Assembly: GCA_035937795.1 (NCBI GenBank)
Contig: DASZHO010000200.1
Span: forward strand, 8,323-72,322
Source of the DNA: Vicinamibacterales bacterium
Lineage (GTDB): Bacteria; Acidobacteriota; Vicinamibacteria; Vicinamibacterales; JAMQPK01
Direction: 5' to 3'
Length of the DNA: 64,000 bases
The position numbers were made by a program, and so were the translations under genes. Numbering within the stretch: position 1 is the first letter of the stretch; each line of letters starts with the position of its first letter. Shown here piece after piece: positions 1-63,694 of this stretch. The notes under the pieces were generated by a model. It saw only the letters and a list, made by a program, of their open reading frames with translations. It did not search any database and was not told where the DNA came from.

Positions 1-602
1 GCCTCCTGCTGGGCCGGATGGAATTCGGTCCCCGCGCCCTCGGCGCCCGTTCCATCATCGGCGATCCCCGATCCCCGCGGATGCAGTCGGTGATGAACCT
101 GAAAATCAAGTTCCGCGAGTCGTTCCGGCCGTTTGCTCCTTCGGTCCTTCGCGAGCATGTGCGCGACTGGTTCGATCTCGACCGGGAAAGTCCCTATATG
201 CTGCTCGTTGCCGACGTGCTGCCGGGAAGGCGGATCCCCGTGCCATCTGAAACGCAGGCATTGTGGGGCATCGAGCAGGTGAACGTACCGCGGTCGACGA
301 TTCCGGCGGTCACGCACGTCGATTACTCGGCTCGGATTCAGACCGTCCGCCGCGAGCTGAACCCGGAGTACTACGACATCATCGACGCGTTCTACCAGCG
401 CACGGGCTGTCCGGTCATCGTTAATACGTCGTTTAATATTCGCGGTGAGCCGATCGTGTGCACGCCGGAGGATGCCTACCGCTGTTTCATGCGAACGAAC
501 ATGGACGCGCTCCTGCTCGGTCGTTTCATTCTTGAGAAAGGGCAGCAGACGCCGCTTGTGGAAGATGATTCGTGGAAGGCGCACCTGACGCATGCGGACT
601 GA
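1..602 (+). CDS. Carbamoyltransferase (NodU/CmcH family), C-terminal part; 5' end lies outside the window
   Basis: Frame is open from the window edge (the ATG at 18 is internal). Translation RMQSVMNLKIKFRESFRPFAPSVL...IPAVTHVDYSARIQTV...GCPVIVNTSFNIRGEPIVCTPEDAYRCF matches the conserved C-terminal carbamoyltransferase domain as I remember it. Confidence 0.85.
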   Translation, partial: LLLGRMEFGPRALGARSIIGDPRSPRMQSVMNLKIKFRESFRPFAPSVLREHVRDWFDLDRESPYMLLVADVLPGRRIPVPSETQALWGIEQVNVPRSTIPAVTHVDYSARIQTVRRELNPEYYDIIDAFYQRTGCPVIVNTSFNIRGEPIVCTPEDAYRCFMRTNMDALLLGRFILEKGQQTPLVEDDSWKAHLTHAD

Positions 603-610
603 TCCGCCGA

Positions 611-1585
611 ATGCCCACCCCATCCTCGCGCACGCACGTCCTGTTCTCAATCGTCTTGCTGCTCTGTTCTCTGGCACTCGCGATTGGTGCCGGCGAGGTG
701 ATCCTGCGCGTCAAGAACAGCTCGATGAAGACCTACGACATCGAGATGTGGCGGTACGCGAAAGACCTCAAGGTTCGCAGCGACGACCCCGCGCTCGATT
801 TCGATCACGTGAAGTCCCGGTCGAGCGTGCTCCAGGGGGTCACGATCCGCCTGAACGAGTGGGGCCTGCGCGGCGGCCCCGTCGAGCCGCTGCCGCCCGG
901 CGGGCGCCGGATCCTGTTTCTCGGTGGGTCGATCGCGCTCGGATGGGGCGTGCCCGAAGACGACACGGTGGAAGCGCGTCTCGAGCGGCATCTGCGCAAG
1001 AGCGGGCAGGCGGTGCAGGTGCTCAATGGCGGAGTGGGCAACTACAATGCCAAGCGCTACGTATCCCGGTTCTTCAAGGAGCTCGCCGGACTGCGGCCCA
1101 CGGACATCGTCGTCCACTACTTTCTTCGTGACGCCGAAGACCTGCCGCCCGGCGGCAACAACGTGGTCCTTCGTAACAGCGAGTTGGCGGTCACCCTGTG
1201 GATCGCGTACCACCGGCTCTTCGACAAGGCCGGTGAGGGGAGCCTGGTGGACCACTATCGATCGGTGTACCAACCCAACGCGCCGGGGTTTATCGAGATG
1301 CAGGCCAGCCTGGCGAAGCTCGCCGAGTACGCGCGGGCCAACAACATCCGGCTCTACCTGGCGATGACGCCCGATGTACACAACCTGGTCGACTACAAGT
1401 TCGGCTTCGTGCACGACACCATGCGCGAGATCGCCCAGCGCGCCGGTTATACCTACATCGACCTCCTGCCGGCCATGATGGGTCGGCCGGCAGAAGGGAT
1501 GTTCGCGATGCCCGGCGACCCTCATCCCAATGCGCTCGGTCATCAGCTGATGGCCGACGCGATCTTTCCCGTGCTTTCGCAGTAG
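611..1585 (+). CDS. SGNH/GDSL-family hydrolase or acyltransferase with N-terminal membrane anchor (AlgJ/AlgX/PatB-like partner of the adjacent MBOAT)
   Basis: ATG at 611 (the ORF opens at GTG 572, overlapping the upstream stop). Hydrophobic N-terminus VLFSIVLLLCSLALAIGAG; ILFLGGSIALGWG (Ser block), GGVGNYN, C-terminal GDPHPNALGH (Asp-x-x-His block). Confidence 0.75.
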   Translation: MPTPSSRTHVLFSIVLLLCSLALAIGAGEVILRVKNSSMKTYDIEMWRYAKDLKVRSDDPALDFDHVKSRSSVLQGVTIRLNEWGLRGGPVEPLPPGGRRILFLGGSIALGWGVPEDDTVEARLERHLRKSGQAVQVLNGGVGNYNAKRYVSRFFKELAGLRPTDIVVHYFLRDAEDLPPGGNNVVLRNSELAVTLWIAYHRLFDKAGEGSLVDHYRSVYQPNAPGFIEMQASLAKLAEYARANNIRLYLAMTPDVHNLVDYKFGFVHDTMREIAQRAGYTYIDLLPAMMGRPAEGMFAMPGDPHPNALGHQLMADAIFPVLSQ

Positions 1586-1589
1586 CCCA

Positions 1590-2987
1590 GTGCTCTTCAG
1601 CTCGCCGACATTTTTCGTCTTCTTCGGCGTCTATCTCTGTTGCCACCTCCTCGTTCCGGCGCGCTATCGGGTCTACCTGATCATCGTCGGCAGCGCGATC
1701 TTCTATTCGTGGTGGAAAGTCTCGTACACGTGGCTGCCTTTCGTGCTGATGGCCACGGCCTACGGAGGGGTGCAGTGGATGGAACACGGCCCCGATCCCT
1801 TGGCCCGCAAGCGACGGGCGGCGGCGACCATCGTCTTGCTGTTCATGCCCTTGCTCATATTCAAGTACACGAACTTCTTCTACCGCGACGTGCTGGGGCC
1901 CCTGTTTGGCTGGCAGGGCACGCTGCTGAACCTGGCACTGCCGCTCGGCGTGTCGTTCGTCACATTCACCTTGACCGCCTTTGTCGTCGACATTTACACG
2001 CGCAAGTACCCGAGCGTGCCGGCCGCATCGACGACGCTGGCATACGTGCTGTTCTTTCCGCACCTGATCGCGGGACCGATCCTGCGTCCCAACGAGCTCG
2101 TGCCACAACTCGAGCATCCGAGGCGCCGGCCGATTCGTAGATTTGCGGTCCCGGTCTCCATCTTCACGCTCGGCCTCGTGAAGAAGCTCGTGTTCGCCGA
2201 CCCGATCGCAGAGGTCGTCGACAGTATCTACGCTCAGTCGAACGGCGCGATCACTGGACCAACCGCGCTGCTCGCGATTTACGGGTTCGCGGTCCAGATC
2301 TATTGTGACTTCAGCGGCTACACCGACATGGCGATCGGGTTGGCCCTTCTACTGGGAGTGCGCCTGCCGAACAACTTCCTCCGCCCTTACGGCGCAGTGT
2401 CGATCGTGGAATTCTGGAGACGGTGGCACATCACGCTGTCGTTCTGGCTCCGTGACTATCTCTACATCCCTCTCGGGGGCAGCCGGAAGGGCCCACTGCT
2501 TCAGGCCCGGAACACCCTGGTCACGATGGTGCTCGGCGGCTTATGGCATGGCGCGAACTGGACATTTGTCGTCTGGGGATTCCTGCACGGCCTCAGTGTG
2601 GCCACCCTTCACATGATCGACGGGATTACCGGGCGGGCCCGCCTGGTGCCGAGGTGGTTCGGCGTCATCCTGACGTTTCACTTCGTCACGATTCTCTGGG
2701 TATTCTTTCGGGCGCCCAATCTGAGACACGCCCTCCAGATCCTGTCGGCGGCGGCCTTTGGTGGCAACTGGACCACGACAGCAACACTCGTGCGGGGCAA
2801 TCTGTTTGTGGTCGGTCTCATCACGCTGTTTGCCTTCGGGCATCGCTTCGACGATCACCGCCGCGTCAGATTGCTGGTGCGCTACCTGCGTCCGGAAGTG
2901 CTATGGCCAATCCTGCTGTTCCTCTGGATAACGGCCATCACCGTCAGCCAGGGGAGTTCCGCGAAGTTCATCTACTTCGACTTCTGA
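1590..2987 (+). CDS. MBOAT-family membrane-bound O-acyltransferase (AlgI/DltB/PatA-like)
   Basis: GTG start gives MLFSSPTFFVFF, a typical MBOAT N-terminus. FWRRWHITLSFWLRDYLYIPLGG and LWHGANWTFVVWGFLHG (conserved His region); polytopic. Confidence 0.9.
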   Translation: MLFSSPTFFVFFGVYLCCHLLVPARYRVYLIIVGSAIFYSWWKVSYTWLPFVLMATAYGGVQWMEHGPDPLARKRRAAATIVLLFMPLLIFKYTNFFYRDVLGPLFGWQGTLLNLALPLGVSFVTFTLTAFVVDIYTRKYPSVPAASTTLAYVLFFPHLIAGPILRPNELVPQLEHPRRRPIRRFAVPVSIFTLGLVKKLVFADPIAEVVDSIYAQSNGAITGPTALLAIYGFAVQIYCDFSGYTDMAIGLALLLGVRLPNNFLRPYGAVSIVEFWRRWHITLSFWLRDYLYIPLGGSRKGPLLQARNTLVTMVLGGLWHGANWTFVVWGFLHGLSVATLHMIDGITGRARLVPRWFGVILTFHFVTILWVFFRAPNLRHALQILSAAAFGGNWTTTATLVRGNLFVVGLITLFAFGHRFDDHRRVRLLVRYLRPEVLWPILLFLWITAITVSQGSSAKFIYFDF

Positions 2988-3104
2988 TCGAAGGACGTGC
3001 GACAGTTCCGGCGATCCACGCCCGATGGCGACGCGTTGATGTATACTCTTTTTTCGCCATCATCGTCGCGTTCCACCAGCGGACCGGCTGCCCCCGCTTG
3101 ACAC

Positions 3105-4280
3105 ATGCCAACTGATTCTCCGAACGCCCTACCCGAACGCTCCGCATGGCGCCGGGTGGCGACCGGCTGTACAACAGCAGCCGTGCTCGCCTGGCTACTG
3201 CTCGTGCTGCGGGATCAGTACGGCGTCAGATCGTTGCAGGCGTTCAACCAGGTCAGCTTCGACGAGCTATTCCTCGCCTCGATCGCCGGGGCAGGAGTCG
3301 CGCGAGCGCTTGCCCGTCGGACCGCCGCCGAGGGCCGCATGTTCGCGCTCCGGCTTGTTCTCCTGGTCGGGATGACCGTCGTCGCACTTGTCTCGACCGA
3401 ATACTTCGCACGATTTCGGTTTCGGCAGGCGCGCACGAGCCAGAATGCTGGAGACTACATCGCGCGGACGAGCGCCTGGTCGCCGGGGCCGTCCAATAGC
3501 CTCGGATTTCGCGACCGGGACGTTCCACCCCGGTCTGCCGCTCGATATCGCATTGTCGTCGTTGGCGACTCGTTCACGTGGGGCCAGGGCATCGAGCGGG
3601 CCGAACGGTTCTCGGATCTGCTCGAGCACTTTCTCGGTCCTCGATACGAGGTGTTCAACTTCGCCCTTCCAGGCGACAAAATGCCCGAGCATTTGACCCG
3701 GCTCACTCAGGCGCTGGCGGTGTCACCCGACTTCGTACTGCTCCAGCTCTACCCCAACGACTTCGAGACACCGGAGATGGAGCGCCCGCGCCCGTATCCG
3801 TTGCTGCCAGACCCCCTCGACAGCCGGCTGGGCGGGGCGTCGCTCCTCTACGGGCTGACGCTCGGCCAGTGGGCACACTTGCAGGAGATTGCCGGGGTTT
3901 CTGAAGGGTACACGCATTACATGGAACGTAATCTCCGCGATGGCAATGCTCCAAATGCCCGCGAAGCGTTCGGTCAGCTCCGCGAATTCTTCGTCCGCGC
4001 GCGCGCCGCCGGCGTGCTGGCTGGCGAGGTCCTGTTTCCCGCGACCGATGCTTCCGGTCCAAACGGGACGGGTTATCCCTTCGGCTACCTGCACGACGCC
4101 GTCCGGCAAGTATGCAAGGATGAAAAAGTGACGTGCCTCGATCTCCTTCCGCTGTTCTCGACCTTTCGCGATCCTCGGGCCGCATGGGTGAGCCCGTTCG
4201 ACGCCCATCCGAATGCCATGGCGAACCGCCGTGCGGCGTACGAGATCTTGAGAGCGTTCGGCTCCGTGTGGCAGCGCTGA
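3105..4280 (+). CDS. SGNH/GDSL-family hydrolase, membrane anchored (second copy)
   Basis: ATG 3105; N-terminal hydrophobic segments; IVVVGDSFTWGQG (Ser block) and FDAHPNAMANR (Asp-x-x-His block). Confidence 0.75.
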   Translation: MPTDSPNALPERSAWRRVATGCTTAAVLAWLLLVLRDQYGVRSLQAFNQVSFDELFLASIAGAGVARALARRTAAEGRMFALRLVLLVGMTVVALVSTEYFARFRFRQARTSQNAGDYIARTSAWSPGPSNSLGFRDRDVPPRSAARYRIVVVGDSFTWGQGIERAERFSDLLEHFLGPRYEVFNFALPGDKMPEHLTRLTQALAVSPDFVLLQLYPNDFETPEMERPRPYPLLPDPLDSRLGGASLLYGLTLGQWAHLQEIAGVSEGYTHYMERNLRDGNAPNAREAFGQLREFFVRARAAGVLAGEVLFPATDASGPNGTGYPFGYLHDAVRQVCKDEKVTCLDLLPLFSTFRDPRAAWVSPFDAHPNAMANRRAAYEILRAFGSVWQR

Positions 4281-4291: not shown

Positions 4292-6580
4292 GTGTATTTC
4301 TCTAATCGCTCGACACGCGGTCGTGCTCTGCTGGGCGCGGCCACATTGCTGCTCGCCCTCCTCGCAATTCTCCGAGCGCTCGACCCGCTGCCTGAAGGGC
4401 TGTACGCGATCTATTTCTCGGACGCCAACTGGAGTTCGTCCCGGGCACGGTCGCGGATTGAGCCCAGCCCATCCACCGACAGCCTCCTCGAGGCATGGGG
4501 CCCCAGCCGCCCACCTGAGGTGTTCAGCACGATCTGGACTGGCTCCTTCATCGCCTTGCGAGAGGGCACGTATACCTTCGGCACGCGCTCCGATGACGGA
4601 GCGTGGGTCTACGTGGACGGGCAACTGGTCGTCGACGACGGAGGACGGCATTCGGCGCTCGTCGCCACGGGGCGCGTACATCTCGACCAGGGCGTCCATG
4701 CGATTTTCATCAAGTATTTTCAGGATGGCGGGTCGTTCCATTTCGATCTGTTGTGGGCTCGCGACGCGGCTCCGCTCGAGCTGATGCCCGCGTGGGCGCT
4801 GTCGGCACGCCACGTGAATTTCTCACGCTTCCTGGCGAGCGTCGTTGTGAGGCGCGCATGGGCCGCGGTCGTCGTGCTTTGGGTCGTTGGGCTTGCGGTC
4901 GTCGGTGTCGCCTGGCTGCGGCGATTTTTGATGCGATGGATCAGTCTCCGCAAAGATGATCCCGTCTCCCTTGTCCTGGTCGGCGTGATTATCGGCTCGT
5001 GCGCGCTCAATCTCGGGGGCGTCTGGTGGGGTCTCCCAGGCAGCTGGGCCGGCGACGAGTTCGCGTCGCCGGCCGTGCTCGAAGGGTTAGCGAAGCGCTT
5101 CACGGGCGGGTGGTTCGACAAGTATCCGCCATTTCATTTTTACGTCTTGAGCGCGGTGTACAGCCCGTGGCTCCTCCTGAAATCGCTCCGGTTGATTCGC
5201 GTCTCCGATACTTTTGAGTTCGGAGCACTGCTCCTGCTGGGTCGATTGACCAGTGTGATCGCGGGAGCCGGCACTCTGATAGCGGTATACGTGTGCGGTG
5301 CCGATGCCTTCGGCAAACGCGCGGGCCTGTTTGCGGCCGCGACGCTTGCAGTACTGACGCCGTTCCTGTACTTCGCCAAGACGGCGAATGTGGAGGCTCC
5401 GTACGTCTTCTGGTTTGCGTTATCGCTGGTCTTCTACGTGCGGTTCGCGCGCACGGACACTCTCAGAGACGCCGTTCTGTTCTCGGTCGCCACGACGCTG
5501 GCAGTTTGCACCAAGGACCAGGCCTACGGGTTGTACCTGCCGGTGCCATTCGTGATCGCGTATCAGGGCTGGCGGTCGAATTGTGAGCGGCGGCGTTCGC
5601 ACCCCTTGCTGCGAGGCGTGCTCGCCAATGGAAGACTGGGCCTGGCGATGGTCACGGGCGCAGCCCTGTTCGTTGCGTGTTACCAGATACCATTCAATAC
5701 AGCGGGATTCATCAGCCACGTCCGTTACATCACCGGTCCGGGCAGCCAGCCATATCGCATGGTGGAGGGAACGCTTGGCGGACGGCTGACGCTGCTCCGG
5801 TTGGCGGCCGGCCTCGATGAAATGGCGTGGGGCTGGCCGATGTGCCTCGTCTGCCTGATCGGAATGGTCGCGGCCGTAAAGGATTCGCGGACGCGACGAA
5901 GCGCTGTCTACCTGCTGCTCATGGCGATGGGATACTACATCGGCTTTATCGACGTGATCTTGTACGTGTACGATCGGTTTCTCCTTCCGATCTACCTGAT
6001 GCAGTCGCTTTTCGCTGGGATCGCGTTCGATAAATTTCTTCGATCGCCCGGAGGCGTCCGGCAGATCCCGCGCATCGCGCTCGTCGCCACGGTTTTCGTG
6101 TATACGTTCCTGTATGCGGCAACCGTCGACGTGCTCATGATTCGCGACTCCCGCTATACCGTCGAGCGGTTGCTCGCCGCTCGCGTAGGCCCGGATCGTC
6201 TCGTTGGAACGATGTTTCCCGTCACTGTCCTTCCCAGGCTCGGTGGGCTTCACTCGATGGACATCGGCACGATCGACGCCTTGCGGCAGAATGCGCCCGC
6301 CGCGTATATTCTCAATGCCGACTACGCTCGCGCCGTCTCCAGGGACAGTCCGCTTGGCCGCCTCATTGCCGGACTGCAACAGGAGACGCTCGGGTACCGG
6401 CTGGTCTTTCGTTACCGTTCACCGGCGCCGTGGCCGTGGCTGCCGGCTCCGCACCACGATCTGGTTGGCCCGCGCCTCGAGACCGCAGCGTATTCTGAGG
6501 TGCGCAACATCAACCCCACCATCGAGATCTACAGCCGCGAGAGCGGCGGTGCCGTGTCACCACCCACCGCTCAACGCTGA
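4292..6580 (+). CDS. PA14-domain / GT-C-like (PMT_2/ArnT-type) polytopic membrane protein
   Basis: GTG 4292. Signal-anchor LLGAATLLLALLAILRAL, then a PA14-like block (YFSDANW...TIWTGSFIALREGTYTFGTRSDDGAWVYVDGQLVVDDGG...IFIKYFQDGG). More than 10 hydrophobic segments follow, with WAGDEF and FDKYPPFHFY (DKPPL-like loop motif). Function is inference. Confidence 0.65.
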   Translation: MYFSNRSTRGRALLGAATLLLALLAILRALDPLPEGLYAIYFSDANWSSSRARSRIEPSPSTDSLLEAWGPSRPPEVFSTIWTGSFIALREGTYTFGTRSDDGAWVYVDGQLVVDDGGRHSALVATGRVHLDQGVHAIFIKYFQDGGSFHFDLLWARDAAPLELMPAWALSARHVNFSRFLASVVVRRAWAAVVVLWVVGLAVVGVAWLRRFLMRWISLRKDDPVSLVLVGVIIGSCALNLGGVWWGLPGSWAGDEFASPAVLEGLAKRFTGGWFDKYPPFHFYVLSAVYSPWLLLKSLRLIRVSDTFEFGALLLLGRLTSVIAGAGTLIAVYVCGADAFGKRAGLFAAATLAVLTPFLYFAKTANVEAPYVFWFALSLVFYVRFARTDTLRDAVLFSVATTLAVCTKDQAYGLYLPVPFVIAYQGWRSNCERRRSHPLLRGVLANGRLGLAMVTGAALFVACYQIPFNTAGFISHVRYITGPGSQPYRMVEGTLGGRLTLLRLAAGLDEMAWGWPMCLVCLIGMVAAVKDSRTRRSAVYLLLMAMGYYIGFIDVILYVYDRFLLPIYLMQSLFAGIAFDKFLRSPGGVRQIPRIALVATVFVYTFLYAATVDVLMIRDSRYTVERLLAARVGPDRLVGTMFPVTVLPRLGGLHSMDIGTIDALRQNAPAAYILNADYARAVSRDSPLGRLIAGLQQETLGYRLVFRYRSPAPWPWLPAPHHDLVGPRLETAAYSEVRNINPTIEIYSRESGGAVSPPTAQR

Positions 6581-6613: not shown

Positions 6614-7879
6614 TCAGTTCGAGCGCAAGCGCTGCCGCACTTGGAGGCCCAACAGCGTCACGGTCACGGCCTCCGCCAGCACCGTGGCCCATGCCGCGCC
6701 GCGAATACCCCATGGCGAAATGAGCAGCATGTTGAGTGCAACGTTGACGCCGAGGCCGATCACGGTCGTCACGAACAGGCGGCGATCGAGGTTGACTGAG
6801 ATCGCCACCGCATGAAGGATCCATGTGCAGAATACGAACACCGATCCTCCCGCAAGCACGCGGAGCGGAGCCGCAGCCGGCGTGTAGCTCTCGCCGAAGA
6901 GGACGGTGACAGCGAGAGGCGCCCCCCATACCATGGCGGCGCCGAGCAGCACCCCCAGGGCGGCCGAGGCGCCTATTCCCCACATCATCAGCCCACGATG
7001 GGCGCGTCGATCTTGCACGAAGAGGAACGACAACTTTGGGGTCAACACGGCTGCCAGCACCGACGGCGCATAGGTCAGACCTTCGTAGATCCGGTACGAC
7101 GCCGCATACCACCCTGTCTCGGCGTCGCTCCGCATGAGGCCCAGAATGACGGTGTCGATGTAGTTGTACATGTTCAGCGCGAGCATGAAAAAGCCGAGGG
7201 GCAGCGCCGAAGCCTGCAGTCCACGCCACGCCTCGCGATCGAATTGGGGACGCATCGAGCCGAGGGTGGGCCTGAGCAGCACGCCGATGACGAATAACAT
7301 GAGAAGACGCGCTGCAACGAACGCAAGGGCGAGGCCCGTCAAGCCATAGCCCCCCCACAATGCGGACCCGCCGAGGATGAGGAGCAACAGCCGATCGGCG
7401 ACCACGACGACGGCTTCCAGGTCGAACCGATCGAGTCCCTGGAGAAGCCCGCGTGCGGTCAGTAGATAAGAGCGCACCGCGGCTGAAATTCCGAGCAGGT
7501 AACAAAGACGGATGACCACGGGGTCCGACCGCAGGATTGGCGTAATGGCGACGAGGAGAAGCAGAGCCCCCGCCACCCAGACGAGCTTCAGCCCAAGGAC
7601 GTGCCGGAACAACTGCGCGGCTGTTTCCTTCTGCCTCGCCACGGCGCGCGCGGTGACTTGACTCAGACCGACGTCCATGATGGTTTCGAGGATGGTGGTC
7701 AGCGCGAGCGCAAACGAAAAGCGGCCGTAATCAGCCGCATCGAGAAAGCGGCCGGCCGCCATCAACAGGACCAGCAGGAGCACGGCGCTGCCGGCGGTCA
7801 CGGTTGCATAGCCGCTGCTGACGAGAAGCGGAAAGCGATCTCGGATTTTCGCGGCGCTCACGCCTCCGCTCAAGGTCAT
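6614..7879 (-). CDS. Wzx-like oligosaccharide flippase (MOP-superfamily polysaccharide biosynthesis protein)
   Basis: ATG 7879 overlaps the upstream stop (ATGA). About 12 TM segments; N-terminal LLVSSGYATVTAGSAVLLLVLLMAAGRFLDAADYGRFSFALAL is typical of Wzx/RfbX-type flippases. Confidence 0.8.
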   Translation of the reverse strand: MTLSGGVSAAKIRDRFPLLVSSGYATVTAGSAVLLLVLLMAAGRFLDAADYGRFSFALALTTILETIMDVGLSQVTARAVARQKETAAQLFRHVLGLKLVWVAGALLLLVAITPILRSDPVVIRLCYLLGISAAVRSYLLTARGLLQGLDRFDLEAVVVVADRLLLLILGGSALWGGYGLTGLALAFVAARLLMLFVIGVLLRPTLGSMRPQFDREAWRGLQASALPLGFFMLALNMYNYIDTVILGLMRSDAETGWYAASYRIYEGLTYAPSVLAAVLTPKLSFLFVQDRRAHRGLMMWGIGASAALGVLLGAAMVWGAPLAVTVLFGESYTPAAAPLRVLAGGSVFVFCTWILHAVAISVNLDRRLFVTTVIGLGVNVALNMLLISPWGIRGAAWATVLAEAVTVTLLGLQVRQRLRSN

Positions 7880-9126
7880 CTCTTCGCCGGGAGATGTCCC
7901 ATTTCTGTTGATGGTCCTGGTGCTGCCAGACGATCGATGACCTGCGCAAGCCTTCCGAGCACGATGCGCTCGTCGAACAGCTGGGCCGTCACGAGCGCCG
8001 CCGCGCCGAGTCGTCGTCGAAGCTCCTGGTCGGTCAGCAATCGGCGAAGCGCCGTCGTGAGCGCGCCGGTATCCTGAGGTGGAACGACGAGCGCATTGAT
8101 CTCCGTCTCCGCGAAATCGCGAGAGCCCCCGGTGTCTGACGTGACGAGGGGCAGCCCGGTCGCCATGGCCTCGACCGACGAGATTCCAAACGATTCAAAG
8201 TGGGATGGCTGCACGGCGATGTCCGCAATCTGAAGCCAGCTGGCGACCTCGCGCGTCGATTGTCCGCCTGCAAAGCGCACGAGATGCGCAAGGCCCTGGT
8301 CGACGACCAAGCGCCTCGCCTCGGTACCGACATCCCACGGATTGCCGGTCATATCCGGACCAACGATGACAAGGAGCGCGTTCTTCACTGCGGCAGCCTG
8401 CCAGGCACGCACCAACTCCATGACCCCTTTCTCCCGGCTGAGGCGCCCGACGAACACTGCGACCAGAGCCTCAGCGGGCACTCCCAGGGCCGCTCGCCTG
8501 GCGAGCCTGTCCGCGACGGTGGTGGGCGCGAATCGCGCCGTGTCGATCGGGTTCGGGATGTAGTACACAGCGTCCCGGGGCACCCCGCACGCCAGGGCCT
8601 CTTGCTCAATCGCCCGGGAGATGCAGGCGAAGGCATCCGCGTGGCCGTAGAGAAACCGAACAGGCCACGTGATGACGTGCTCAGCCGCGCTGCCAGGCCG
8701 CACGCCTAGCGGCCGCATGCGCTCGCTGAGCCCCGCCCCGCTGAGAACGCCCTCGGTTTGCGCCTGGAACAAGACGGGGACCCGCGCGAGCCGTCCGGCC
8801 AGGAGCGCCGCGAGCCCGACGCCACGATAATCTACGCAGCAAATGATCTGAAACTCTCCACGCCGTCGGGTGACCTCGCGCAGGATCCATGGCAGCGCCA
8901 GCCATTTGCTGCTCGCTCGCCGCTCTCCATGTGGTCCAGTCCGGATGACACGCACGCCCGCGAGTGTCTCCTCGGCCGGATGGTTTAACGAAGTCCGCTT
9001 CGTGACGACGAGGACGGGATGTCCCCGGCGGACGAGAAACGTCGCGAGCCGCTCGGCGGCAGCCTCGGCGCCCCCAAGTTCTGGGGGGTAAAATGTGGTG
9101 ACGATCGCCACGGAGACTTTGGGCAT
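7876..9126 (-). CDS. Glycosyltransferase family 4 (GT-B, group 1)
   Basis: VAIVTTFYPPELGGAEAAAERLATFLVRRGH...; FVGRLSREKGV; PSHFESFGISSVEAMATGLPLVTSDTGGSRDF (EX7E region). Confidence 0.85.
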   Translation of the reverse strand: MPKVSVAIVTTFYPPELGGAEAAAERLATFLVRRGHPVLVVTKRTSLNHPAEETLAGVRVIRTGPHGERRASSKWLALPWILREVTRRRGEFQIICCVDYRGVGLAALLAGRLARVPVLFQAQTEGVLSGAGLSERMRPLGVRPGSAAEHVITWPVRFLYGHADAFACISRAIEQEALACGVPRDAVYYIPNPIDTARFAPTTVADRLARRAALGVPAEALVAVFVGRLSREKGVMELVRAWQAAAVKNALLVIVGPDMTGNPWDVGTEARRLVVDQGLAHLVRFAGGQSTREVASWLQIADIAVQPSHFESFGISSVEAMATGLPLVTSDTGGSRDFAETEINALVVPPQDTGALTTALRRLLTDQELRRRLGAAALVTAQLFDERIVLGRLAQVIDRLAAPGPSTEMGHLPAKR

Positions 9127-9130: not shown

Positions 9131-10168
9131 TCACAACACCCCGCGAATGATCAACCAGTAACCGTTCAGAAATGAATTCATGACTTTGTAGCCAAACGCG
9201 AGCATCGCCGAGTCAACATACTCCGAGGAAATGAAGATCGACCCGCTTGTCATCAACTCCCTGTCATTCACCAGGCGTTTTGGCTGAATGTGGCGGCGAA
9301 CGCTCAAGATCGACCCGATATTTGCCAGGACATATTTCATGGCCGTTAGATACTGCCGCATCTCGCGTTTCTTCAGAATGAACAAGATCACCGACATTTC
9401 ATAGACGACCAGCGCCGGCGTGCATAGAATGAGCGTCTTCGCCTGGTAAAGCTCCAGCAGAAATCTCCACCGATTCCTCACCGTGCCATAGTACCGCCGC
9501 GCACCCTTCACTCTCTTGTGATAAACAACTGCGGAGGGAATGTGATAACAGAAGTGCCCGGCGAGATTCATCTTGTGGTTGAACTCCCCGTCGTCTCCCC
9601 AACCCATGACGTAGTCTTCACTGAAATTGCCCAGTTCGGCAGCCTGGCGCTTGTCGACTAATTGAACGCCCCAGCCGATGGTCAGCCGAGGTCTATCATC
9701 GGCGTCCTTGAGTGGAAAATCGCGATTGCGCGCCAGACTCGTGCCCACATAGTGAAGCACTTGACCGTCCTGGTAGATCATCGAGGGATCGCGTTCGTAT
9801 AACGTGCGAGGGATGCAAACGGCCGCCTGAGGCAGATTCTTGAGCCCGCCGAGTAACTGATCCAGACAGTCGGGCTTCAAGGTGACATCATTGTCCACCA
9901 GAAAGACGAAGTCTGTCTTGGATTCCTCGAGCGCTCGATTGCGCAGCTTGTTCAGATTGCCGCTGTTGAATCCCAGCTCAACAACACGCACGTGAGGAAA
10001 GAGCTCTCGTACTAGCGCCGGGCTACCGTCTTCGGATCCATCATCGATCATGAGGATTTCACCCGGGGGTGAAGTGAGACCTTGGATCGACTCAAAACAA
10101 TCTTTCACGACTGCAACGCCGTTATAGTTTGAGACTACGACAGTCACGTGTGAAGAACTGAACCTCAT
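9131..10168 (-). CDS. Glycosyltransferase family 2 with C-terminal TM segments
   Basis: VTVVVSNYNG...ILMIDDGSEDGS...FLVDNDV (GT-A DxD); hydrophobic C-terminal third. ATG 10168 is preferred. The ORF track opens at 10291, which would overlap the upstream gene by 19 nt. The gene is visibly lower in G+C than its neighbours. Confidence 0.8.
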   Translation of the reverse strand: MRFSSSHVTVVVSNYNGVAVVKDCFESIQGLTSPPGEILMIDDGSEDGSPALVRELFPHVRVVELGFNSGNLNKLRNRALEESKTDFVFLVDNDVTLKPDCLDQLLGGLKNLPQAAVCIPRTLYERDPSMIYQDGQVLHYVGTSLARNRDFPLKDADDRPRLTIGWGVQLVDKRQAAELGNFSEDYVMGWGDDGEFNHKMNLAGHFCYHIPSAVVYHKRVKGARRYYGTVRNRWRFLLELYQAKTLILCTPALVVYEMSVILFILKKREMRQYLTAMKYVLANIGSILSVRRHIQPKRLVNDRELMTSGSIFISSEYVDSAMLAFGYKVMNSFLNGYWLIIRGVL

Positions 10169-10272
10169 CTCCTTCTCGTCGGTGTGCAATGTTCTATATT
10201 GGCCGTGCGGATGGTGACGTATGAGCTCGACGCATGTGGATTTCGGGCCTTTCGACTTGAAGGACGAACCCT

Positions 10273-11739
10273 TCATGGGGCGCGAACCCACCAGGCGGCC
10301 CCGAGCATCCAGACCGCAAGTAACGGGACGAGGCTCGTTCGGCCGCGGAGCCCAATCCGTTCGCCAAGATTCCAGGCCTGGTGCACTTCCGGATGGTTGC
10401 GGAAAAGCTCTGGATTCCAGCCGTACGTTTCAAACGACTCCTGGTTCACGGACACATCGCCTTCGAGGAATGCAGGCCACCACAGCTGTCTGAACGGGTG
10501 ATCGAAGAGCGAGGGCGGTTGCGGCGTAACGGAAACAGCGATCAGGGTGATGCCGATCCCGCAGGCGCAAATGGCCGCGAGGCCAAAGCGGGCAGGCCGG
10601 CCGGCGGCGTTCCAGAGAGGCGCGAGCGCCAATGCCAGAAATGGCAAGGCCGGTAACATGTGGCGAGGACCGTAGCTCCAGCCGCCCTCCCAATAGAAGT
10701 AGCTGGAATTGAGGAGGAGATAGTACACGGGAATAATCGCCGCGACGGCAAGCGGTTTCCGGTCGGCGGCCGTGCGATACCACACCCAGAACCCCACCGG
10801 CGCAAGGGCGAGCACAGGCGCCAATGGCAGGAGCCCGCGGTACGCGCCGACGAGCAGCTCGCCGATGATCGCCGGCTTCGGATAGGTGAGACCGAAGACG
10901 CCGACATGGAGTTCCCCGAGCGGCGAGTTCGCGACCGCATACCCAAGGCTGAACGGTGAGCCAAATGCTGCCGCGTTGAAAGCAGCAAGCACGGTTGCGC
11001 AGATGATCGCGCCAGCAAACAGGGCGCCAAGGACGGCCAGCCAGTCGTCTCGCTTGGCCAATCGCTCGTTGGCCACGACGAGTGCGGCAATCAAAGCAGC
11101 GGGAACCGCCACTGTGTATTCCGTCACCGTTCCCCACCCGGCGGCGATGCCGACGAGAAAGGCGCAGCGGACGCGCGCGGGTGTCACGGTAAGTGTCGGC
11201 AGCGCCACGGCCGCGCCGAATGCCAAAAGCAGGCACGCTGTCGCCAGCGCATGACCGAAGAACAGCGTGGCGAAGGCCCACGCCGGTGTGGCCAACCCGA
11301 ACGACAAGGCCGCAAACGTCGCTCCCGACTCGTTGCCGAATAGCCACAGGGCAATGAGGCTCAGGCCCACGGCGGCGGCGGCGATCGCTACGCCGTCGAG
11401 GGCCACAGTCGCCGTGTACGTCAACGCGACGATGCCACGTTCGGATTTCGGATCGACGCCGATGCTCCTGAGCGCCACGGTTGCGGCGGCGACGACGGGA
11501 ACAGCCGTCAGCGCCAAACCTGGCGCCTTGTCTGAGTAGACATGCCCGTTGTAGGTGGCCTTGTCACCGGTGTTCTCGTGGAACGCGTCGATCTGCAGCG
11601 TGTGACGCTGGAGGATCGCACGGACGAGATCGAAGCGGCTGTTCTGATTCCACCCGCCGGCCTCATAAAAGTACGCATAAGAGGCGAGCAGCACGAGGCC
11701 GAGAATCAGACGCCGGCTGCCTGGTGAGTGACCGATCAT
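10273..11739 (-). CDS. Polytopic membrane protein, GT-C-like (inference)
   Basis: ATG 11739, 17 nt after the upstream stop (the ORF track opens at 11913 inside the upstream gene). At least 12 hydrophobic segments. The first loop GGWNQNSRFDL...DKATYNGHVYSDKAPGLAL resembles the DKPPL loop of PMT_2/ArnT-like enzymes. Confidence 0.6.
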   Translation of the reverse strand: MIGHSPGSRRLILGLVLLASYAYFYEAGGWNQNSRFDLVRAILQRHTLQIDAFHENTGDKATYNGHVYSDKAPGLALTAVPVVAAATVALRSIGVDPKSERGIVALTYTATVALDGVAIAAAAVGLSLIALWLFGNESGATFAALSFGLATPAWAFATLFFGHALATACLLLAFGAAVALPTLTVTPARVRCAFLVGIAAGWGTVTEYTVAVPAALIAALVVANERLAKRDDWLAVLGALFAGAIICATVLAAFNAAAFGSPFSLGYAVANSPLGELHVGVFGLTYPKPAIIGELLVGAYRGLLPLAPVLALAPVGFWVWYRTAADRKPLAVAAIIPVYYLLLNSSYFYWEGGWSYGPRHMLPALPFLALALAPLWNAAGRPARFGLAAICACGIGITLIAVSVTPQPPSLFDHPFRQLWWPAFLEGDVSVNQESFETYGWNPELFRNHPEVHQAWNLGERIGLRGRTSLVPLLAVWMLGAAWWVRAP

Positions 11740-11755
11740 GGCCGAATTATACCGA

Positions 11756-12862
11756 TCAACGCCATAACCGGCGGCCGCGGCCTGGCAGCGCAAAGAGATA
11801 GCGATTGGGCAGACGCTTGAGCCAGTACGGATGATCACCCGGGCGCACCCCGAGGGCTCCCCGCAACCGATTGGCAAACGCGCTGCGATACCCGAGCCGC
11901 TCGAGCGCTTCAACCGTGTGGCGGCCGGAGACGCCCCAGGGTAGGCAGATGTGATTCACCGACCGGATGGCAAGCCGTTCGTTCAACGTGGCGCGTCCGC
12001 GATCCAGTTCTTCTTCAATTTCTCGACGCTGTTCAGGCTCGCTCTCGAACGGCGTGCGAGTCTTCGCCTCGTTCGCAACGCGGCGCAGGGCGGCGCGCCA
12101 ATCGCCGCGTGAAAAGAACGCGGGGCCGCCCTCACGGGCGACCAGCTTCAGACACTGCTCGTGCACGTCGAGCGGTACCATCGCCCTGAGGCCATCCGAC
12201 ATGCGCGATCGCGCCGCGTACAGAGGCGCGCCGAGCTCGCTCGCGGTCAGGAACCTGAGCGCGGGGCGTGGCACTAGTTGAGGCCTGTTGAGCAGCGGCG
12301 TGCTCGCATAGTCGGGTGTGACAAACCCGCGAGCGTCGCTCGAGGAGAAAACCATCGAATGCGTATCTGTATGGCACTGCACGTCGATGACGCCGGAGAC
12401 GCTGAGCCGGCGCAGCTCGGGCCAGGTGACGAACGGCGAACCCTCCGCCGCCGGCCGGCCCTCATCATCCAGCGTGGGACGGCAGTCGGCGGCATCGACG
12501 ATGCGCGACGGGATGGCGTAAGCGATCGCCCTCATTCCATAGCGCCGCAGGAGCGGCGCGGCCACGGTCCAGAGACTTGCCCATGCATCGTCAAAGCAGA
12601 GGCCTACGAATCGACCCTTGAGCACCGTCTCGCGGCGGGCGTGCGCGGCGATCTCGGAAGAGGTCACCGTCCGGTATCCGTTCTCTGCGAGAAAATTCAG
12701 TTTTGCGTCGAGATCCGCGCGCGCGACCTCGTGAAAATGAAATACCGGCAGCAGATCGCCGGTCGGGCCGCCCAGCAGAAATGCAGGATAACGTCCGGCG
12801 GCCAGGTCGATGACGCCGCGCAGCTTCCCCCCACGCTCCTCGAAGGGCACGCCAGTTGTCAT
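11756..12862 (-). CDS. Polysaccharide deacetylase family protein (NodB-homology/CE4-like)
   Basis: ATG 12862. GLCFDDAWASLWTVAAPLLRRYGMRAIAYAI and HTDTHSMVF resemble NodB-homology motifs. First gene of the minus-strand operon 12862->6614. Confidence 0.75.
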   Translation of the reverse strand: MTTGVPFEERGGKLRGVIDLAAGRYPAFLLGGPTGDLLPVFHFHEVARADLDAKLNFLAENGYRTVTSSEIAAHARRETVLKGRFVGLCFDDAWASLWTVAAPLLRRYGMRAIAYAIPSRIVDAADCRPTLDDEGRPAAEGSPFVTWPELRRLSVSGVIDVQCHTDTHSMVFSSSDARGFVTPDYASTPLLNRPQLVPRPALRFLTASELGAPLYAARSRMSDGLRAMVPLDVHEQCLKLVAREGGPAFFSRGDWRAALRRVANEAKTRTPFESEPEQRREIEEELDRGRATLNERLAIRSVNHICLPWGVSGRHTVEALERLGYRSAFANRLRGALGVRPGDHPYWLKRLPNRYLFALPGRGRRLWR

Positions 12863-12889
12863 GCTGGGTTAACCAATGCCTATCATATT

Positions 12890-12919
12890 ATCTATCCGTG
12901 TCTCATCTATCCGTGTCTC
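12890..12919. repeat. Perfect 15-bp tandem direct repeat ATCTATCCGTGTCTC x2 in a divergent control region
   Basis: Read directly: 12890-12904 and 12905-12919 are identical. The repeat lies in the AT-rich gap between ATG 12862 (minus) and the first plausible plus-strand start, GTG 12913. Confidence 0.9.
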
Positions 12920-14766
12920 GCGCGGTTGGCACGCTGTCGGTCGCCGCCGCGCTCATTGCGATCCTCATCGCCGCAGGATCTGTGGATGTGGCGCGAAGCG
13001 GATTCGGCGTGAAGGGCGACGAAGCCACGTACGCGTCGATGGCTCTCAGCCTCGCGTTCGACCACGACCTGAGTTATCAACGAGCGGACCTCGAGCGCTT
13101 TCGCACGCTGTATGGGCAGGGGCCGGAAGGCATCTTTCTGAAGCGGGGTGAGCAGTGGCATTTCTATATCGACAGCACTCCTCCGTTCGGGCACTTCGAC
13201 AGGGTTCCGGATCCTCCTGATTCCAACCGGCTGTATTTCGGCAAGGCGTTCATCTATTCGTTGTTCGCCGCCCCGTTCGTCCGGCTGTTCGGCCTGAACG
13301 GGTTTCTCATCTTTCATGCGCTCCTGATGTTCGGGGTGATTCTCTGCGGATACGTATTTCTCTCGGCGCGGTCACGGGCCGGCCCCGCCCTCGGCTTTAC
13401 GCTTGCGTTCGTCGGACTGACCGTCGTCCCCATTTACGGGGTCTTCTTCACGTCGGACATTTTCAACTTCGCCCTCGTGTTCTACGCGTACTTTCTGTGG
13501 CTGTACAAGGAAGTCGCGCCCCCGCAGGCCTGGCGATTCCTCCGCTCGGATGGCAGCGACCTCGTCGCGGCAATACTGCTCGGCATCGCGACCTTTTCGA
13601 AACCGATCCCCGTGTTGCTCATCGTCCCACTGGTACTCTTGTTGTGGCGGCGCCGTCGATTCTGGCGTGGGATCGTCGTCGGCGTGGTCTTCGCGCTCAC
13701 AACGGCCGGCCTGTTCGGCGCGAATGCGTGGAGCTCGGGCGAGTTCAACTACCAGGGCGGCGATCGCAATACGTTCTACGGGCGTTTCCCCTTCGACGGG
13801 TCCGGCACCGTGTTCGGTCGCGGCATTCAATCGGCAACCAATGACGCCGACGCGGAAAGCGTGTTGAAGGGGTCCGAGTTCGTCAATCGCTTCGACCACA
13901 ATGTCGAGTATTTCTTCGTCGGCCGTCACTTTGGCTTCGTGCCGTACTTCTTCCCGGGCTTCGTTGGCGTGTGCCTCTGGCTGTTTTCCAGGGAGCGCTT
14001 CACCGCGTGGCGCGTGCTGGCGCTCGTCGCGCTCGTCGTGTCGACGATCGTGTTGCTGATCTTTCTGCCGTATTCGTGGAGCGGGGGCGGCGGGCCGCCC
14101 GGCAATCGGTACTTCTTGAATTTGTACCCGGTCGTGTTCTTCCTTGTCCCACCGCTGCGGTCGATGACGACGCCGGTTGTTGCCGGGATAGGCAGTGCGC
14201 TGTTTACGGCGCATATGCTGATGCATCCGTTCGTGACCGCCAAATACACCTATCTCATGACCGAATCGGGCCCCGCGCGATCTCTTCCGGTCGAGCTGAC
14301 GATGGCCAACGACCTGCCGGTGATGCTGAGTTCGTCGCCGCTGCGCGGCCATATCCCTTACGGCGACGATCCGTTCATGCTGCTCTATTTTCTCGATCAG
14401 AACGCTTTTCCGCCCGAACCGATGGGGATGTGGGTCGGCAACCACCGGGCGGATATCATCGTGAGGACCGAGGATCCGCTCGATCACCTCGTCATCACGG
14501 CCGAATCACCCATCCAGACGACGCTGACGGTATCCGCGGGTGCTGAGGCGGTAACCGTGACAATGGCGCCGAACACGCCGGTGAATTTCAATGTGCCGGT
14601 CCGCGGCGTACGCGGATTTCAGAGTTACGAGTACTTGATGTCGGCCAAAGCGTCCGAAGCCTTTGTTCCGCACCTCCTTGACCCGAAGTCCGGCGATTAT
14701 CGAACCCTCGGAGCGCAGTTGCGGTTCTCCGCGGTCAGAGCCGTCCGCTCTCAGGCCTCCCGATGA
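12913..14766 (+). CDS. Polytopic membrane protein with soluble C-terminal tail, GT-C-like (inference)
   Basis: The ORF opens at TTG 12856, overlapping the divergent gene; GTG 12913 is the first plausible start. Loop motif GDEATYASMALSLAFDHDL is shared with 16466..19108. The C-terminal tail ends FVPHLLDPKSGDYRTLG. Confidence 0.6.
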   Translation: MSRAVGTLSVAAALIAILIAAGSVDVARSGFGVKGDEATYASMALSLAFDHDLSYQRADLERFRTLYGQGPEGIFLKRGEQWHFYIDSTPPFGHFDRVPDPPDSNRLYFGKAFIYSLFAAPFVRLFGLNGFLIFHALLMFGVILCGYVFLSARSRAGPALGFTLAFVGLTVVPIYGVFFTSDIFNFALVFYAYFLWLYKEVAPPQAWRFLRSDGSDLVAAILLGIATFSKPIPVLLIVPLVLLLWRRRRFWRGIVVGVVFALTTAGLFGANAWSSGEFNYQGGDRNTFYGRFPFDGSGTVFGRGIQSATNDADAESVLKGSEFVNRFDHNVEYFFVGRHFGFVPYFFPGFVGVCLWLFSRERFTAWRVLALVALVVSTIVLLIFLPYSWSGGGGPPGNRYFLNLYPVVFFLVPPLRSMTTPVVAGIGSALFTAHMLMHPFVTAKYTYLMTESGPARSLPVELTMANDLPVMLSSSPLRGHIPYGDDPFMLLYFLDQNAFPPEPMGMWVGNHRADIIVRTEDPLDHLVITAESPIQTTLTVSAGAEAVTVTMAPNTPVNFNVPVRGVRGFQSYEYLMSAKASEAFVPHLLDPKSGDYRTLGAQLRFSAVRAVRSQASR

Positions 14767-16454: not shown

Positions 16455-16465
16455 CTGGCAGTGAG

Positions 16466-19108: not shown

Positions 19109-19141
19109 CCTCGGCTTGAATCATAGCCACACCATGCGGCG

Positions 19142-20712: not shown

Positions 20713-20741
20713 TTGACAGCCACCAGCCGAACGCGTACTAT
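20713..20741 (+). promoter_or_regulatory. Near-consensus sigma-70-type promoter for the lipoprotein gene at 20866
   Basis: TTGACA (20713-20718), 17-nt spacer, TACTAT (20736-20741). Confidence 0.5.
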
Positions 20742-20812
20742 TTGCCAACCTTCCCGGGCAAGCGACGAGCCTCCCAGCACTGTCGCACGTGATCAGCCGA
20801 GCGGCGTTCCTT

Positions 20813-20834
20813 GTGAAGGCGGAGTCGCCTTCAC
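20813..20834 (+). promoter_or_regulatory. Perfect 9-bp-stem hairpin in the predicted 5' UTR
   Basis: GTGAAGGCG (20813-20821), loop GAGT, CGCCTTCAC (20826-20834). No U-tract follows. Confidence 0.4.
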
Positions 20835-20865
20835 TCACCAACAATTCGTCACACGTTCTCTTGCG

Positions 20866-63188: not shown

Positions 63189-63694
63189 ACCGCCGCAGTC
63201 GGCCAGACGATCGCTGCCGGTGAAGGCGACCTCGTTTTCACTGGGAGAGGAAAGTCCGAACTCCGCAGGGCAGTGCGCCGGGTAACGCCCGGTCAGGGTG
63301 ACCTGAAGGACAGTGGCACAGAAAATATACCGCCCGCCTGTACGCTTCGCGCCAGGCGTTGCCGGCCCGCAAGGGCTTGCGGCGCCGAAGCCGGAGACGA
63401 AGGCGGGTAAGGGTGAAAAGGTGCGGTAAGAGCGCACCGCGTCTGCCGTAAGGCAGATGGCAGGCAAAACCCCGCACGGAGCAAGACCAAATAGGGAAGC
63501 GACGCGCTCGCTCGCGAGCGTCGAAAGGACGGCCCGTCCCAGGCTTCCGGGTAGGTCGCTTGAGTCCGCCAGCGATGGCGGAGCTAGAGGAATGATCGTC
63601 TCCCGAGGCGCGGCTCTCGTGCGCGCGACATCGCGTGCGTGGTGAGCTTCGCGGAGGGAACAGAATTCGGCTTACGGTCCGGCTGCGGCGCTTT
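63189..63694 (+). ncRNA. rnpB: RNase P RNA, bacterial type A
   Basis: GAGGAAAGTCCG (63247-63258), GGGTAACGCCCGG, GTAAGGGTGAAAAGGTGCGGTAAGAGCGCACC (63407-63438), ACAGAATTCGGCTTA (63659-63674). P1 pairing: CGCCGCAGTCGG near 63191 with CCGGCTGCGGCG near 63679-63690. The ends are approximate (+/-5 nt). Confidence 0.9.

Follow-up and report, generated by a model that had tools for sequence, protein, structure and literature searches.

A PA14 domain on an N-terminal membrane cassette of a GT-C-like glycosyltransferase in a probable Vicinamibacterales polysaccharide locus

We examined a stretch of 64,000 nucleotides from a Vicinamibacterales bacterium (phylum Acidobacteriota; GenBank assembly GCA_035937795.1, contig DASZHO010000200.1, positions 8,323 to 72,322 of the forward strand). 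We call this stretch the window, and all coordinates below are positions in it. The gene in question runs from 4292 to 6580 on the forward strand, starts with GTG, and encodes a protein of 762 amino acids (aa) in which a PA14 domain is joined to a membrane body of the GT-C glycosyltransferase type. It follows an SGNH gene whose stop codon ends at 4280. An earlier note, made from the letters alone, had read a PA14 domain at 4403-4802 and described it as inserted after the first transmembrane (TM) helix of a GT-C-like membrane enzyme. The peptide that it read lies in frame within the open reading frame (ORF), and its coordinates correspond to aa 38-170.

The PA14 domain itself was borne out. Pfam PA14 (PF07691) matches aa 35-158 (4394-4765) with E=1.7e-17 and 64 bits over model positions 3-136 of 147, and the curated cut-off for this model is 24 bits. 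An alignment of 46 family members was used to build a family profile and an AlphaFold2 (AF2) model, and the same 46 sequences are the basis of all conservation counts given here. When we searched the PDB with the profile, the best matches were RsgI3 6qe7 (E=6e-30) and 6qdi (E=6e-23), followed by domain 1 of anthrax protective antigen (E about 6e-10); Vip4 and the lectin domains of the adhesins Lap and MpIBP were also found. The AF2 model has a mean pLDDT (predicted local distance difference test) of 87.9 and a pTM (predicted template modelling score) of 0.82, with a pLDDT of 82-97 across the PA14 domain, which is predicted to be a periplasmic beta-sandwich. Foldseek with this part of the model matched MpPA14 (6x7j/6x7z) at a target TM-score of 0.65-0.69 and a root-mean-square deviation (rmsd) of 3.4 Å, RsgI at an rmsd of 2.4-3.4 Å, and also the PA14 domains of anthrax protective antigen, Lap, GH3 (3abz/3ac0) and GH31 proteins.

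The GT-C-like body was confirmed as well. Pfam PMT_2 (PF13231) aligns to aa 317-429 at 39.1 bits, above its cut-off of 26.1 bits (E=1.1e-9). Foldseek aligned the body of the model to STT3, ALG9, ALG12, AglB, PglB, ArnT, Pmt4 and EmbA/B with a probability of 1.00 and E-values from 3e-8 to 5e-5 (STT3 had an E-value of 3e-8, and the target TM-scores were 0.60 for ALG12 and 0.52 for Pmt4). Sequence and profile searches of the PDB returned PA14 matches only and none to the body, even at E<=10, so the GT-C assignment rests on Pfam and fold comparison. With NCBIfam we saw sub-threshold matches only (Fibro_Slime domain, archaeal STT3 and Agl23). By the tests applied, the protein is a member of both the PA14 family and the PMT_2/GT-C family. 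The idea that it is a spurious ORF or a chance resemblance is refuted by E-values of 1e-17 to 1e-30, a confident predicted fold, and hundreds of full-length homologues at 47-72% identity. We also removed two narrower assignments from consideration. A PMT in the strict sense (GT39) was ruled out since the Pfam scan of the 762-aa protein found neither PF02366 (PMT) nor a MIR domain, and ArnT (GT83, the transferase of 4-amino-4-deoxy-L-arabinose, Ara4N, to lipid A) was ruled out since there was no NCBIfam ArnT match and the neighbours are not arn genes.

The protein starts with three arginines (R6, R9 and R11) ahead of TM1 (4325-4381, aa 12-30 by hydropathy; helix 2-30 in the model), an N-terminal export helix that could be a signal anchor, or else a signal peptide with a candidate cleavage site near A29. 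Hydropathy shows a soluble stretch from aa 31 to 190, within which the model places a beta domain at aa 37-157. This is followed by TM2 (4862-4918, aa 191-209, inside a long model helix 177-220), which we call the return helix, and by a loop of aa 210-224 with five K/R residues, predicted to be cytoplasmic. The GT-C membrane body (4961-6184, aa 224-631) then begins with TM3 (aa 225-243 by hydropathy, helix 224-247 in the model), continues with many further helices, contains the PMT_2 match, and equals the whole of those homologues that have no PA14 domain. Its first periplasmic loop (5033-5131, aa 248-280) carries a W252-A-G-D255-E256 motif, 5-9 residues past helix 224-247. E256 is found in 46/46 family members and D255 in 37/46, and the W-x-x-D-E motif is present in all of the distant members we inspected, including those without PA14. 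GT-C enzymes have a catalytic acidic residue in the first extracytoplasmic loop after their TM1, and E256 in the DE motif is our candidate for it. A predicted C-terminal periplasmic alpha/beta domain (6185-6541, aa 632-750, from the AF2 secondary structure) completes the chain; comparable domains follow the last TM helix in ArnT/PglB-type GT-C enzymes.

As the earlier note had proposed, the PA14 domain is predicted to face the periplasm, on the same side as the predicted catalytic loop and the C-terminal domain, because two membrane passes separate it from the GT-C loop that carries E256. The charge bias agrees, with three Arg before TM1 and five K/R in aa 210-224. The domain is exported whether TM1 stays in place as a signal anchor or is cleaved as a signal peptide.

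Where the GT-C part begins became clear from relatives, which we collected from GTDB species genomes with the peptide patterns CTKDQAY[GA] and F[IV][ND][VT][IV][LR]Yx[YF]D; the two patterns are conserved among these loci by construction, and relatives that lack the patterns were missed. The scan gave 126 relatives (their loci carry handles such as L030 below). Those that match the query over about 5-750 come from Acidobacteriota/Vicinamibacterales metagenome-assembled genomes (MAGs) and one Moduliflexus. Those that match only from about 210-243 onward come from Aminicenantes, several cyanobacteria, ‘Eubacteriales’ MAGs, Ignavibacteriaceae, Desulfatirhabdiaceae and Marinacidobacterales. The ORFs of the PA14-less homologues are 520-570 aa long and start no more than about 10 residues from query aa 216, so the GT-C body is a free-standing family. 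Judging from these alignments, the first ~215 aa (export helix, PA14 domain and return TM helix) make up a cassette placed ahead of the canonical GT-C TM1. The domain therefore lies in an add-on before the first GT-C helix, not after it, and this part of the earlier description has to be corrected. With its two extra membrane passes the cassette leaves the canonical topology of the GT-C body unchanged, and this is the minimal route to an N-terminal periplasmic domain on a protein whose N-terminus is cytoplasmic.

In a neighbour-joining tree of the body, about 40 cassette-bearing loci fall in one large clade and 36 cassette-less ones in the other, with L030 as the sole exception to this split. 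These roughly 40 cassette-bearing loci from GTDB species form one Acidobacteriota clade. The cassette is retained throughout the large clade, down to about 31% body identity, and it is about as conserved as the GT-C body, which points to long-term retention under selection. A six-frame search with a hidden Markov model (HMM) found the cassette in frame in L063 and in a shifted frame in L021, L025, L026 and L064. In these four loci, around locus positions 9700-10750, the frames of cassette and body differ, implying frameshifts; the genes may be pseudogenes, or the MAG assemblies may contain indel errors here. Some MAGs have two copies per genome (L009 with L015, and L006 with L018). In L075, the frame of a PA14-less homologue continues from 9680 without a stop into further sequence, which to our eye resembles an Asp/Glu racemase (motifs ‘DSGLGG’ and ‘GCNTLS’); this may reflect a true fusion, or else an artefact of the assembly or of the frame.

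The earlier note had proposed a survey of PA14 and PMT_2 co-occurrence, and the combination turned out to be far from unusual. A homologue search returned at least 315 clusters at 90% identity; we count over 300 with PF07691, nearly all of which also have PF13231. The best 120 of the at least 315 clusters are all about 640-820 aa long and 47-72% identical to the query, all have PF07691, and nearly all have PF13231. Database names, with JGI and NCBI among the sources, include ‘fibro-slime domain-containing protein’, ‘PA14 domain/Dolichyl-phosphate-mannose-protein mannosyltransferase’, ‘ArnT-like glycosyltransferase’, ‘PA14 domain-containing protein [Vicinamibacterales]’ and ‘GT39 [Acidobacteria]’. 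The fusion is common in the lineage and has already been flagged by annotation pipelines. When aa 1-222 were compared with a representative library we obtained 15,856 matches, with the top dominated by multi-repeat PA14 proteins. Their stretch scores are summed, so these match counts are no measure of the fusion; among the top 150, about two dozen single-stretch N-terminal matches belong to the PA14-GT-C family. In the literature that we searched, from which most subscription journals were missing, we found no paper on a PA14 domain fused to a GT-C enzyme.

The solved relatives of the domain suggest where a ligand might bind. In PA14A of RsgI3, the DcisD pair on strand 5 (D86 and D87) and Q130 of calcium-binding loop 2 coordinate the ligand Ca2+. 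A sister module with N-G in place of D-D shows no binding of Ca2+ or pectin, and both kinds of binding are abolished when DD is lost (PMC6852018). A HMMER alignment pairs D101, D102 and Q144 of the 762-aa protein with D86, D87 and Q130 of RsgI3. We regard D101-D102 (4592-4597) as a candidate DcisD motif for Ca2+ and sugar binding and Q144-D-G-G-S148 (4721-4735) as a candidate calcium-binding loop 2. D101 is present in 46/46 members, D102 in 44/46 and Q144 in 40/46 (with Asn in another 3/46). In loop 2, G146 (42/46) and G147 (43/46) are well conserved and positions 145 and 148 are variable; in the RsgI modules, specificity is set by variation of this kind. At the level of its sequence the domain qualifies as a lectin-type PA14 as defined by DcisD-N/Q, the type known from Flo5/Epa1, RsgI and MpPA14. 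The picture is more mixed in distant cassette-bearing members: DD is kept in L030 and L058, L029 has ED, L065 has AD, and L076 has neither Asp. All five still score as PA14, L076 with 19.6 bits, which is below the Pfam cut-off of 24.

These residues also bear on whether the domain is a lectin at all. It could instead have a structural role in the enzyme and no lectin function of its own, whether as a lid or wall to the active site or by making contact with another protein. There is precedent for this, as the PA14 insert of a yeast GH3 beta-glucosidase shapes the catalytic pocket, and deletion of PA14 from the animal enzyme B4GALNT3 kills activity on all substrates, leading its authors to consider PA14 part of the catalytic region. 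The whole-chain pTM of 0.82 suggests a fixed arrangement of the domains, and some distant members retain the PA14 domain yet lose the DcisD pair. Against it stands the near-invariance of D101, D102 and Q144 among close family members. In addition, PA14-less and apparently complete homologues in other phyla indicate that the body fold does not need PA14, and the cassette also heads unrelated bodies. We consider the structural explanation unlikely.

The genes that follow point to a polysaccharide. On the reverse strand, and assigned with Pfam and NCBIfam except for the membrane protein, lie a Wzx-type flippase (6614-7879), a GT4 (7876-9126), a GT2 (9131-10291), a membrane protein with no Pfam match (10273-11913) and a CE4/PgaB-like deacetylase (11756-12862). 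In 12 related loci, homologues of these five proteins and of further membrane proteins that we labelled o636, o563 and o880 are found close to the PA14-GT-C gene. Because these polysaccharide-assembly genes are found nearby in the 12 loci, the acceptor is probably a glycan of a Wzx/Wzy-type polysaccharide locus.

The same neighbours are one reason why we doubt that the enzyme is a PMT-like protein O-glycosyltransferase whose PA14 domain recognises a protein or glycoprotein substrate instead of a polysaccharide. What speaks for such an enzyme is that the Pfam match is to PMT_2, that PF02366 is listed for some homologues (a minority), that Pmt4 is among the fold matches, and that the DE motif of loop 1 is similar to the one in PMTs. 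PMT_2 is broad, however, and also includes ArnT-like lipid and glycan transferases; the window protein has no MIR domain and no PF02366 match; and the conserved neighbours (Wzx, GT4, GT2 and CE4 deacetylase) are those of polysaccharide assembly. We think it quite improbable that proteins are the substrate.

For the donor, the evidence comes from related loci. A GT2 of about 240 aa is found directly 3' of the PA14-GT-C gene and on the same strand in seven loci (L001, L002, L007, L012, L016, L017 and L024), and in L072 a 306-aa GT2 follows a cassette-less homologue. We classified the GT2s of L002, L017 and L072, and their best NCBIfam models were AglJ, PpgS, ArnC, dolichyl-phosphate hexose transferase and PgfS, with no match reaching the equivalog cut-off. 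These models all represent polyprenyl-phosphate sugar synthases, and the genomic association suggests, at the level of the class, that the donor is a polyprenyl-phosphate-linked sugar. A possible counterpart in the window is a small GT2 of 237 aa (29132-29845, reverse strand; ArnC, PpgS, Dol-P hexose transferase and AglJ, again below cut-offs), a candidate maker of the lipid-linked donor. Also in that region are an MprF-type flippase-like protein (35243-36226, reverse strand; TIGR00374 with 74 bits and a cut-off of 43) and a protein of the Wzy_C/O-antigen-ligase family (34004-35218, reverse strand, E 6e-19), and the three together look like a module for lipid-linked-sugar supply and polymerisation or ligation. 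Both the small GT2 and the flippase-like protein lie near a second cassette-bearing protein, described below, and not near the first. A GtrA-type flippase was not identified in the window, and there is no small one next to the PA14-GT-C gene.

Putting these observations together, we propose that the 762-aa protein is a lectin-tethered GT-C enzyme (COG1807/PMT_2 type) of the inner membrane facing the periplasm, which decorates the glycan of a Wzx/Wzy-type polysaccharide locus with sugar from a polyprenyl-phosphate carrier, and we give this proposal a probability of roughly 55%. A small GT2 would load a monosaccharide onto polyprenyl phosphate on the cytoplasmic side, the lipid-linked sugar would be flipped to the periplasmic face, and the GT-C body would move the sugar onto a glycan acceptor produced by the surrounding locus. 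The PA14 domain would act as a Ca2+-dependent lectin, through D101-D102 and Q144, that holds or selects the polymer and in this way targets or regulates the transfer. The earlier note had suggested that PA14 couples acceptor recognition to catalysis. Both the lectin activity and this coupling are plausible because the residues of the Ca2+/sugar site are conserved, and the presence of the cassette on unrelated bodies fits a targeting module.

Several points count against this proposal. The predicted topology is based on hydropathy, charge bias and analogy of fold. Several distant members do not have the DcisD pair, which means that not every copy of the domain can work by Ca2+-dependent sugar binding. 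The GT2s are assigned at the level of a class and score under the NCBIfam equivalog cut-offs, and in the window itself there is no polyprenyl-phosphate GT2 beside the PA14-GT-C gene, with the candidate being 23 kb away.

A different role for the lectin would keep the conserved site. PA14 might be a regulatory or localising sensor of a finished or differently modified envelope glycan, or of some other polymer, and by binding it would inhibit, activate or spatially restrict the enzyme. PA14 modules of RsgI sense polysaccharide and are not enzyme modules, and sulfated glycans that are PA14 ligands of B4GALNT3 inhibit its activity toward glycoproteins, a form of product feedback. A single shared ligand, for instance the polysaccharide of the cell itself, would also fit the finding of the same cassette on several unrelated catalytic bodies per genome or locus. 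The conserved sugar-site residues, however, fit the tethering of an acceptor equally well, and no signalling partner is evident. We view a sensor as possible but doubtful, and we prefer the tethered decorating enzyme.

The window holds a second protein with the cassette, of 917 aa (29982-32735, forward strand). It has a candidate signal-peptide cleavage site (‘LHA|G’) near aa 31, a PA14 domain at aa 33-161 (Pfam E=5e-22) and a return TM helix, followed by an unrelated body of about 10 TM helices and a C-terminal domain of about 300 aa. The two cassettes are 39% identical over 165 residues, and the shared stretch covers PA14 (TSDDG and FQAGG), a ‘WARD..PAWALS’ linker, and the return TM helix. 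The cassette HMM of the first family scores the 917-aa protein at 193 bits, compared with 79 bits for the generic Pfam PA14 model, and finds exactly two copies of the cassette in the 64-kb window. Neither the ~10-TM body nor the ~300-aa C-terminal domain has a Pfam or NCBIfam match. An invariant D245/E247 is seen in the first loop of the body. The 917-aa family has members with and without the cassette, and in some of its homologues the ~300-aa C-terminal part is recognised as F5/8 type C. We considered whether the body might be a remote homologue of the 762-aa body and rejected this as unproven, as hhalign with the bodies only gave a probability of 2.2% and E=0.022. The full-length profile-profile match of the two proteins has a probability of 99.6% and is carried by the cassette. 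Foldseek with the 917-aa model (pLDDT 87.0) returned EmbA/B only, at a TM-score of about 0.2. Between the two proteins, only the cassette is demonstrably common.

The cassette was found on other bodies too: on a different PMT_2 body in L063 (16144-18285) and on a TMEM260-like GT-C protein (P0146). An SGNH hydrolase is preceded by two PA14 domains (P0161), and a PMT_2/PMT body by three, with the cassette in triplicate (P0134). Four loci have a second cassette-bearing membrane protein only a few kb from their PA14-GT-C homologue (L063 16144-18285, L064 about 16093-18291, L022 15280-12251 on the reverse strand, and L030 7651-8118), and in L022 homologues of both window cassette proteins adjoin each other tail to tail. 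These cases led us to a broader and more tentative idea, which may be right but which we would not favour at present: that the unit of export helix, PA14 and return TM helix is a portable targeting cassette peculiar to Vicinamibacteria-type Acidobacteriota, carried by a set of glycan-tailoring enzymes that face the periplasm and dock on one nascent exopolysaccharide. The bodies included would be at least two PMT_2 GT-C families, a TMEM260-like GT-C, the unclassified ~10-TM body, and an SGNH hydrolase. If this is true, the cassette-bearing enzymes form a lectin-organised decoration line in the periplasm. Secreted glycoside hydrolases with carbohydrate-binding modules are a familiar case of modular targeting by lectins; for biosynthetic enzymes that are integral to the membrane, we came across no such description.

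The remainder of the window has further genes of the glycan locus. Upstream of the PA14-GT-C gene, the region 18-4280 (forward strand) encodes an SGNH/GDSL protein, a DltB/AlgI-like MBOAT (PF03062, E 3e-33) and a second SGNH protein, and it starts with what we take to be the C-terminal fragment of a carbamoyltransferase-like protein, read from the translation only. These are probably genes for O-acylation and carbamoylation of a polysaccharide. The SGNH-MBOAT-SGNH block was absent from all of the related loci examined, and we rejected it as a functional partner because it is not conserved with the PA14-GT-C gene.

Downstream, five large multi-TM ORFs have no Pfam match at E<=1e-4: 10273-11913 (reverse), 12856-14766 (forward), 14763-16454 (forward), 16466-19108 (reverse) and 19142-20701 (reverse). 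There are weak hints of PMT_2 for 12856-14766 (E 0.004), of Wzy_C for 16466-19108 (E 0.017), and of the Leptospira LA_3751/3752 putative glycosyltransferase family for 10273-11913 (E 1e-4). Four of the five are kept beside the PA14-GT-C gene in several related loci, and the other one, 19142-20701, was matched only in L011. The ORFs of the region 10273-20701 may form a cluster that encodes glycan polymerases or transferases as yet unclassified. Two of the neighbouring Pfam-less membrane proteins (o636 and o519) were considered as relatives of the 762-aa protein, and hhalign with the family profile showed no relationship.

Three ORFs scattered through the glycan locus (20713-21921, 22492-23886 and 32881-34038, all forward) have weak Ig_Rha78A_N-like and PhoD_N-like matches and no TM helix predicted by Kyte-Doolittle hydropathy; the first two are paralogues with 34% identity. 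At 27615-29165 (reverse) is an HldE-like bifunctional protein in which the domain order of E. coli HldE is reversed: the adenylyltransferase (rfaE domain II) comes first, at aa 40-172, and the kinase (rfaE domain I/PfkB) follows at aa 333-478. Together with the adjacent epimerase (26078-27031), it hints at a pathway for heptose or a related nucleotide sugar that feeds the locus. The region from 41 to 64 kb has housekeeping genes. A bacterial class A RNase P RNA was found at 63195-63690 (forward; Rfam RF00010, 274.8 bits), and it must carry sizeable insertions because it has 496 nt for a model of 367 positions. A search of the whole window with ARAGORN gave no tRNA gene.

GT-C enzymes add decorations to the surface glycans of bacteria outside the cytoplasm. 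A lectin-type module that is fused to the enzyme and has conserved Ca2+/sugar-site residues makes the question of how they find polymeric acceptors directly testable, with the PA14-less counterparts of the body and the other cassette-bearing bodies as natural comparison sets. The family is also a guide to candidate genes for exopolysaccharide tailoring in Vicinamibacteria-type Acidobacteriota, a group whose polysaccharides are, to our knowledge, largely uncharacterised. The fusion is clear bioinformatically and incremental conceptually, as accessory lectin domains on glycosyltransferases are known (PMT-MIR, Emb/AftD and B4GALNT3-PA14). The combination of PA14 with GT-C is widespread, annotated by pipelines, and uncharacterised in the literature we found.

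Among known systems, ArnT and other COG1807 proteins (GT83) share the PMT_2-type body; ArnT is one of the fold matches, and JGI calls some homologues ‘ArnT-like’. Unlike ArnT, the protein is not in an arn operon and has Wzx, GT4, GT2, CE4, SGNH and MBOAT genes as neighbours. A synthase-like GT2 for polyprenyl-phosphate sugar in an operon with the enzyme, as seen in related loci, recalls the three-component systems for extracytoplasmic glycosylation of the GtrA/GtrB/GtrC kind (polyprenyl-phosphate GT2, flippase and GT-C). Neither ArnT nor GtrC has a PA14 domain, unlike the 762-aa protein. A GT-C enzyme with a non-cytoplasmic lectin-like domain and a dependence on polyprenyl-phosphate sugar is already known in PMT1/2, with their MIR beta-trefoil, and in EmbA/B/C and AftD, with C-terminal carbohydrate-binding modules. 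Pmt4 and EmbA/B are among the fold matches of our model. The accessory fold is a different one, and so is its placement: MIR is in an internal loop and the Emb/AftD modules are C-terminal, whereas the PA14 domain here is N-terminal and comes with its own export helix and return TM helix.

The PA14 domain is not confined to secreted proteins, as the earlier note had described it, being found also in membrane-anchored RsgI and in Golgi B4GALNT3 (PMC6852018, PMC13018970, PMC11254600). The animal Golgi LacdiNAc synthases B4GALNT3 and B4GALNT4 are similar to our protein in having a non-catalytic PA14 domain inside a glycosyltransferase polypeptide. In B4GALNT3 the domain is a lectin and is needed for activity toward glycoproteins (PMC13018970, PMC11254600), which offers a precedent for PA14-guided transfer. 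The likeness that we considered is in the PA14 fold. These enzymes are eukaryotic, cross the membrane once in the type II orientation, and have a catalytic domain that is soluble, is not GT-C and uses a nucleotide-sugar donor. The closest solved relatives of the PA14 part are the PA14 dyads of RsgI3 and RsgI4 from Clostridium thermocellum and C. clariflavum (6qe7 and 6qdi), which share the DcisD pair, the Gln of calcium-binding loop 2, and an extracytoplasmic PA14 tethered to the membrane, and which bind polysaccharide through Ca2+. The RsgI proteins are single-pass signalling anti-sigma factors with two PA14 modules and no enzyme, whereas here a single PA14 domain is carried on a multi-pass glycosyltransferase.

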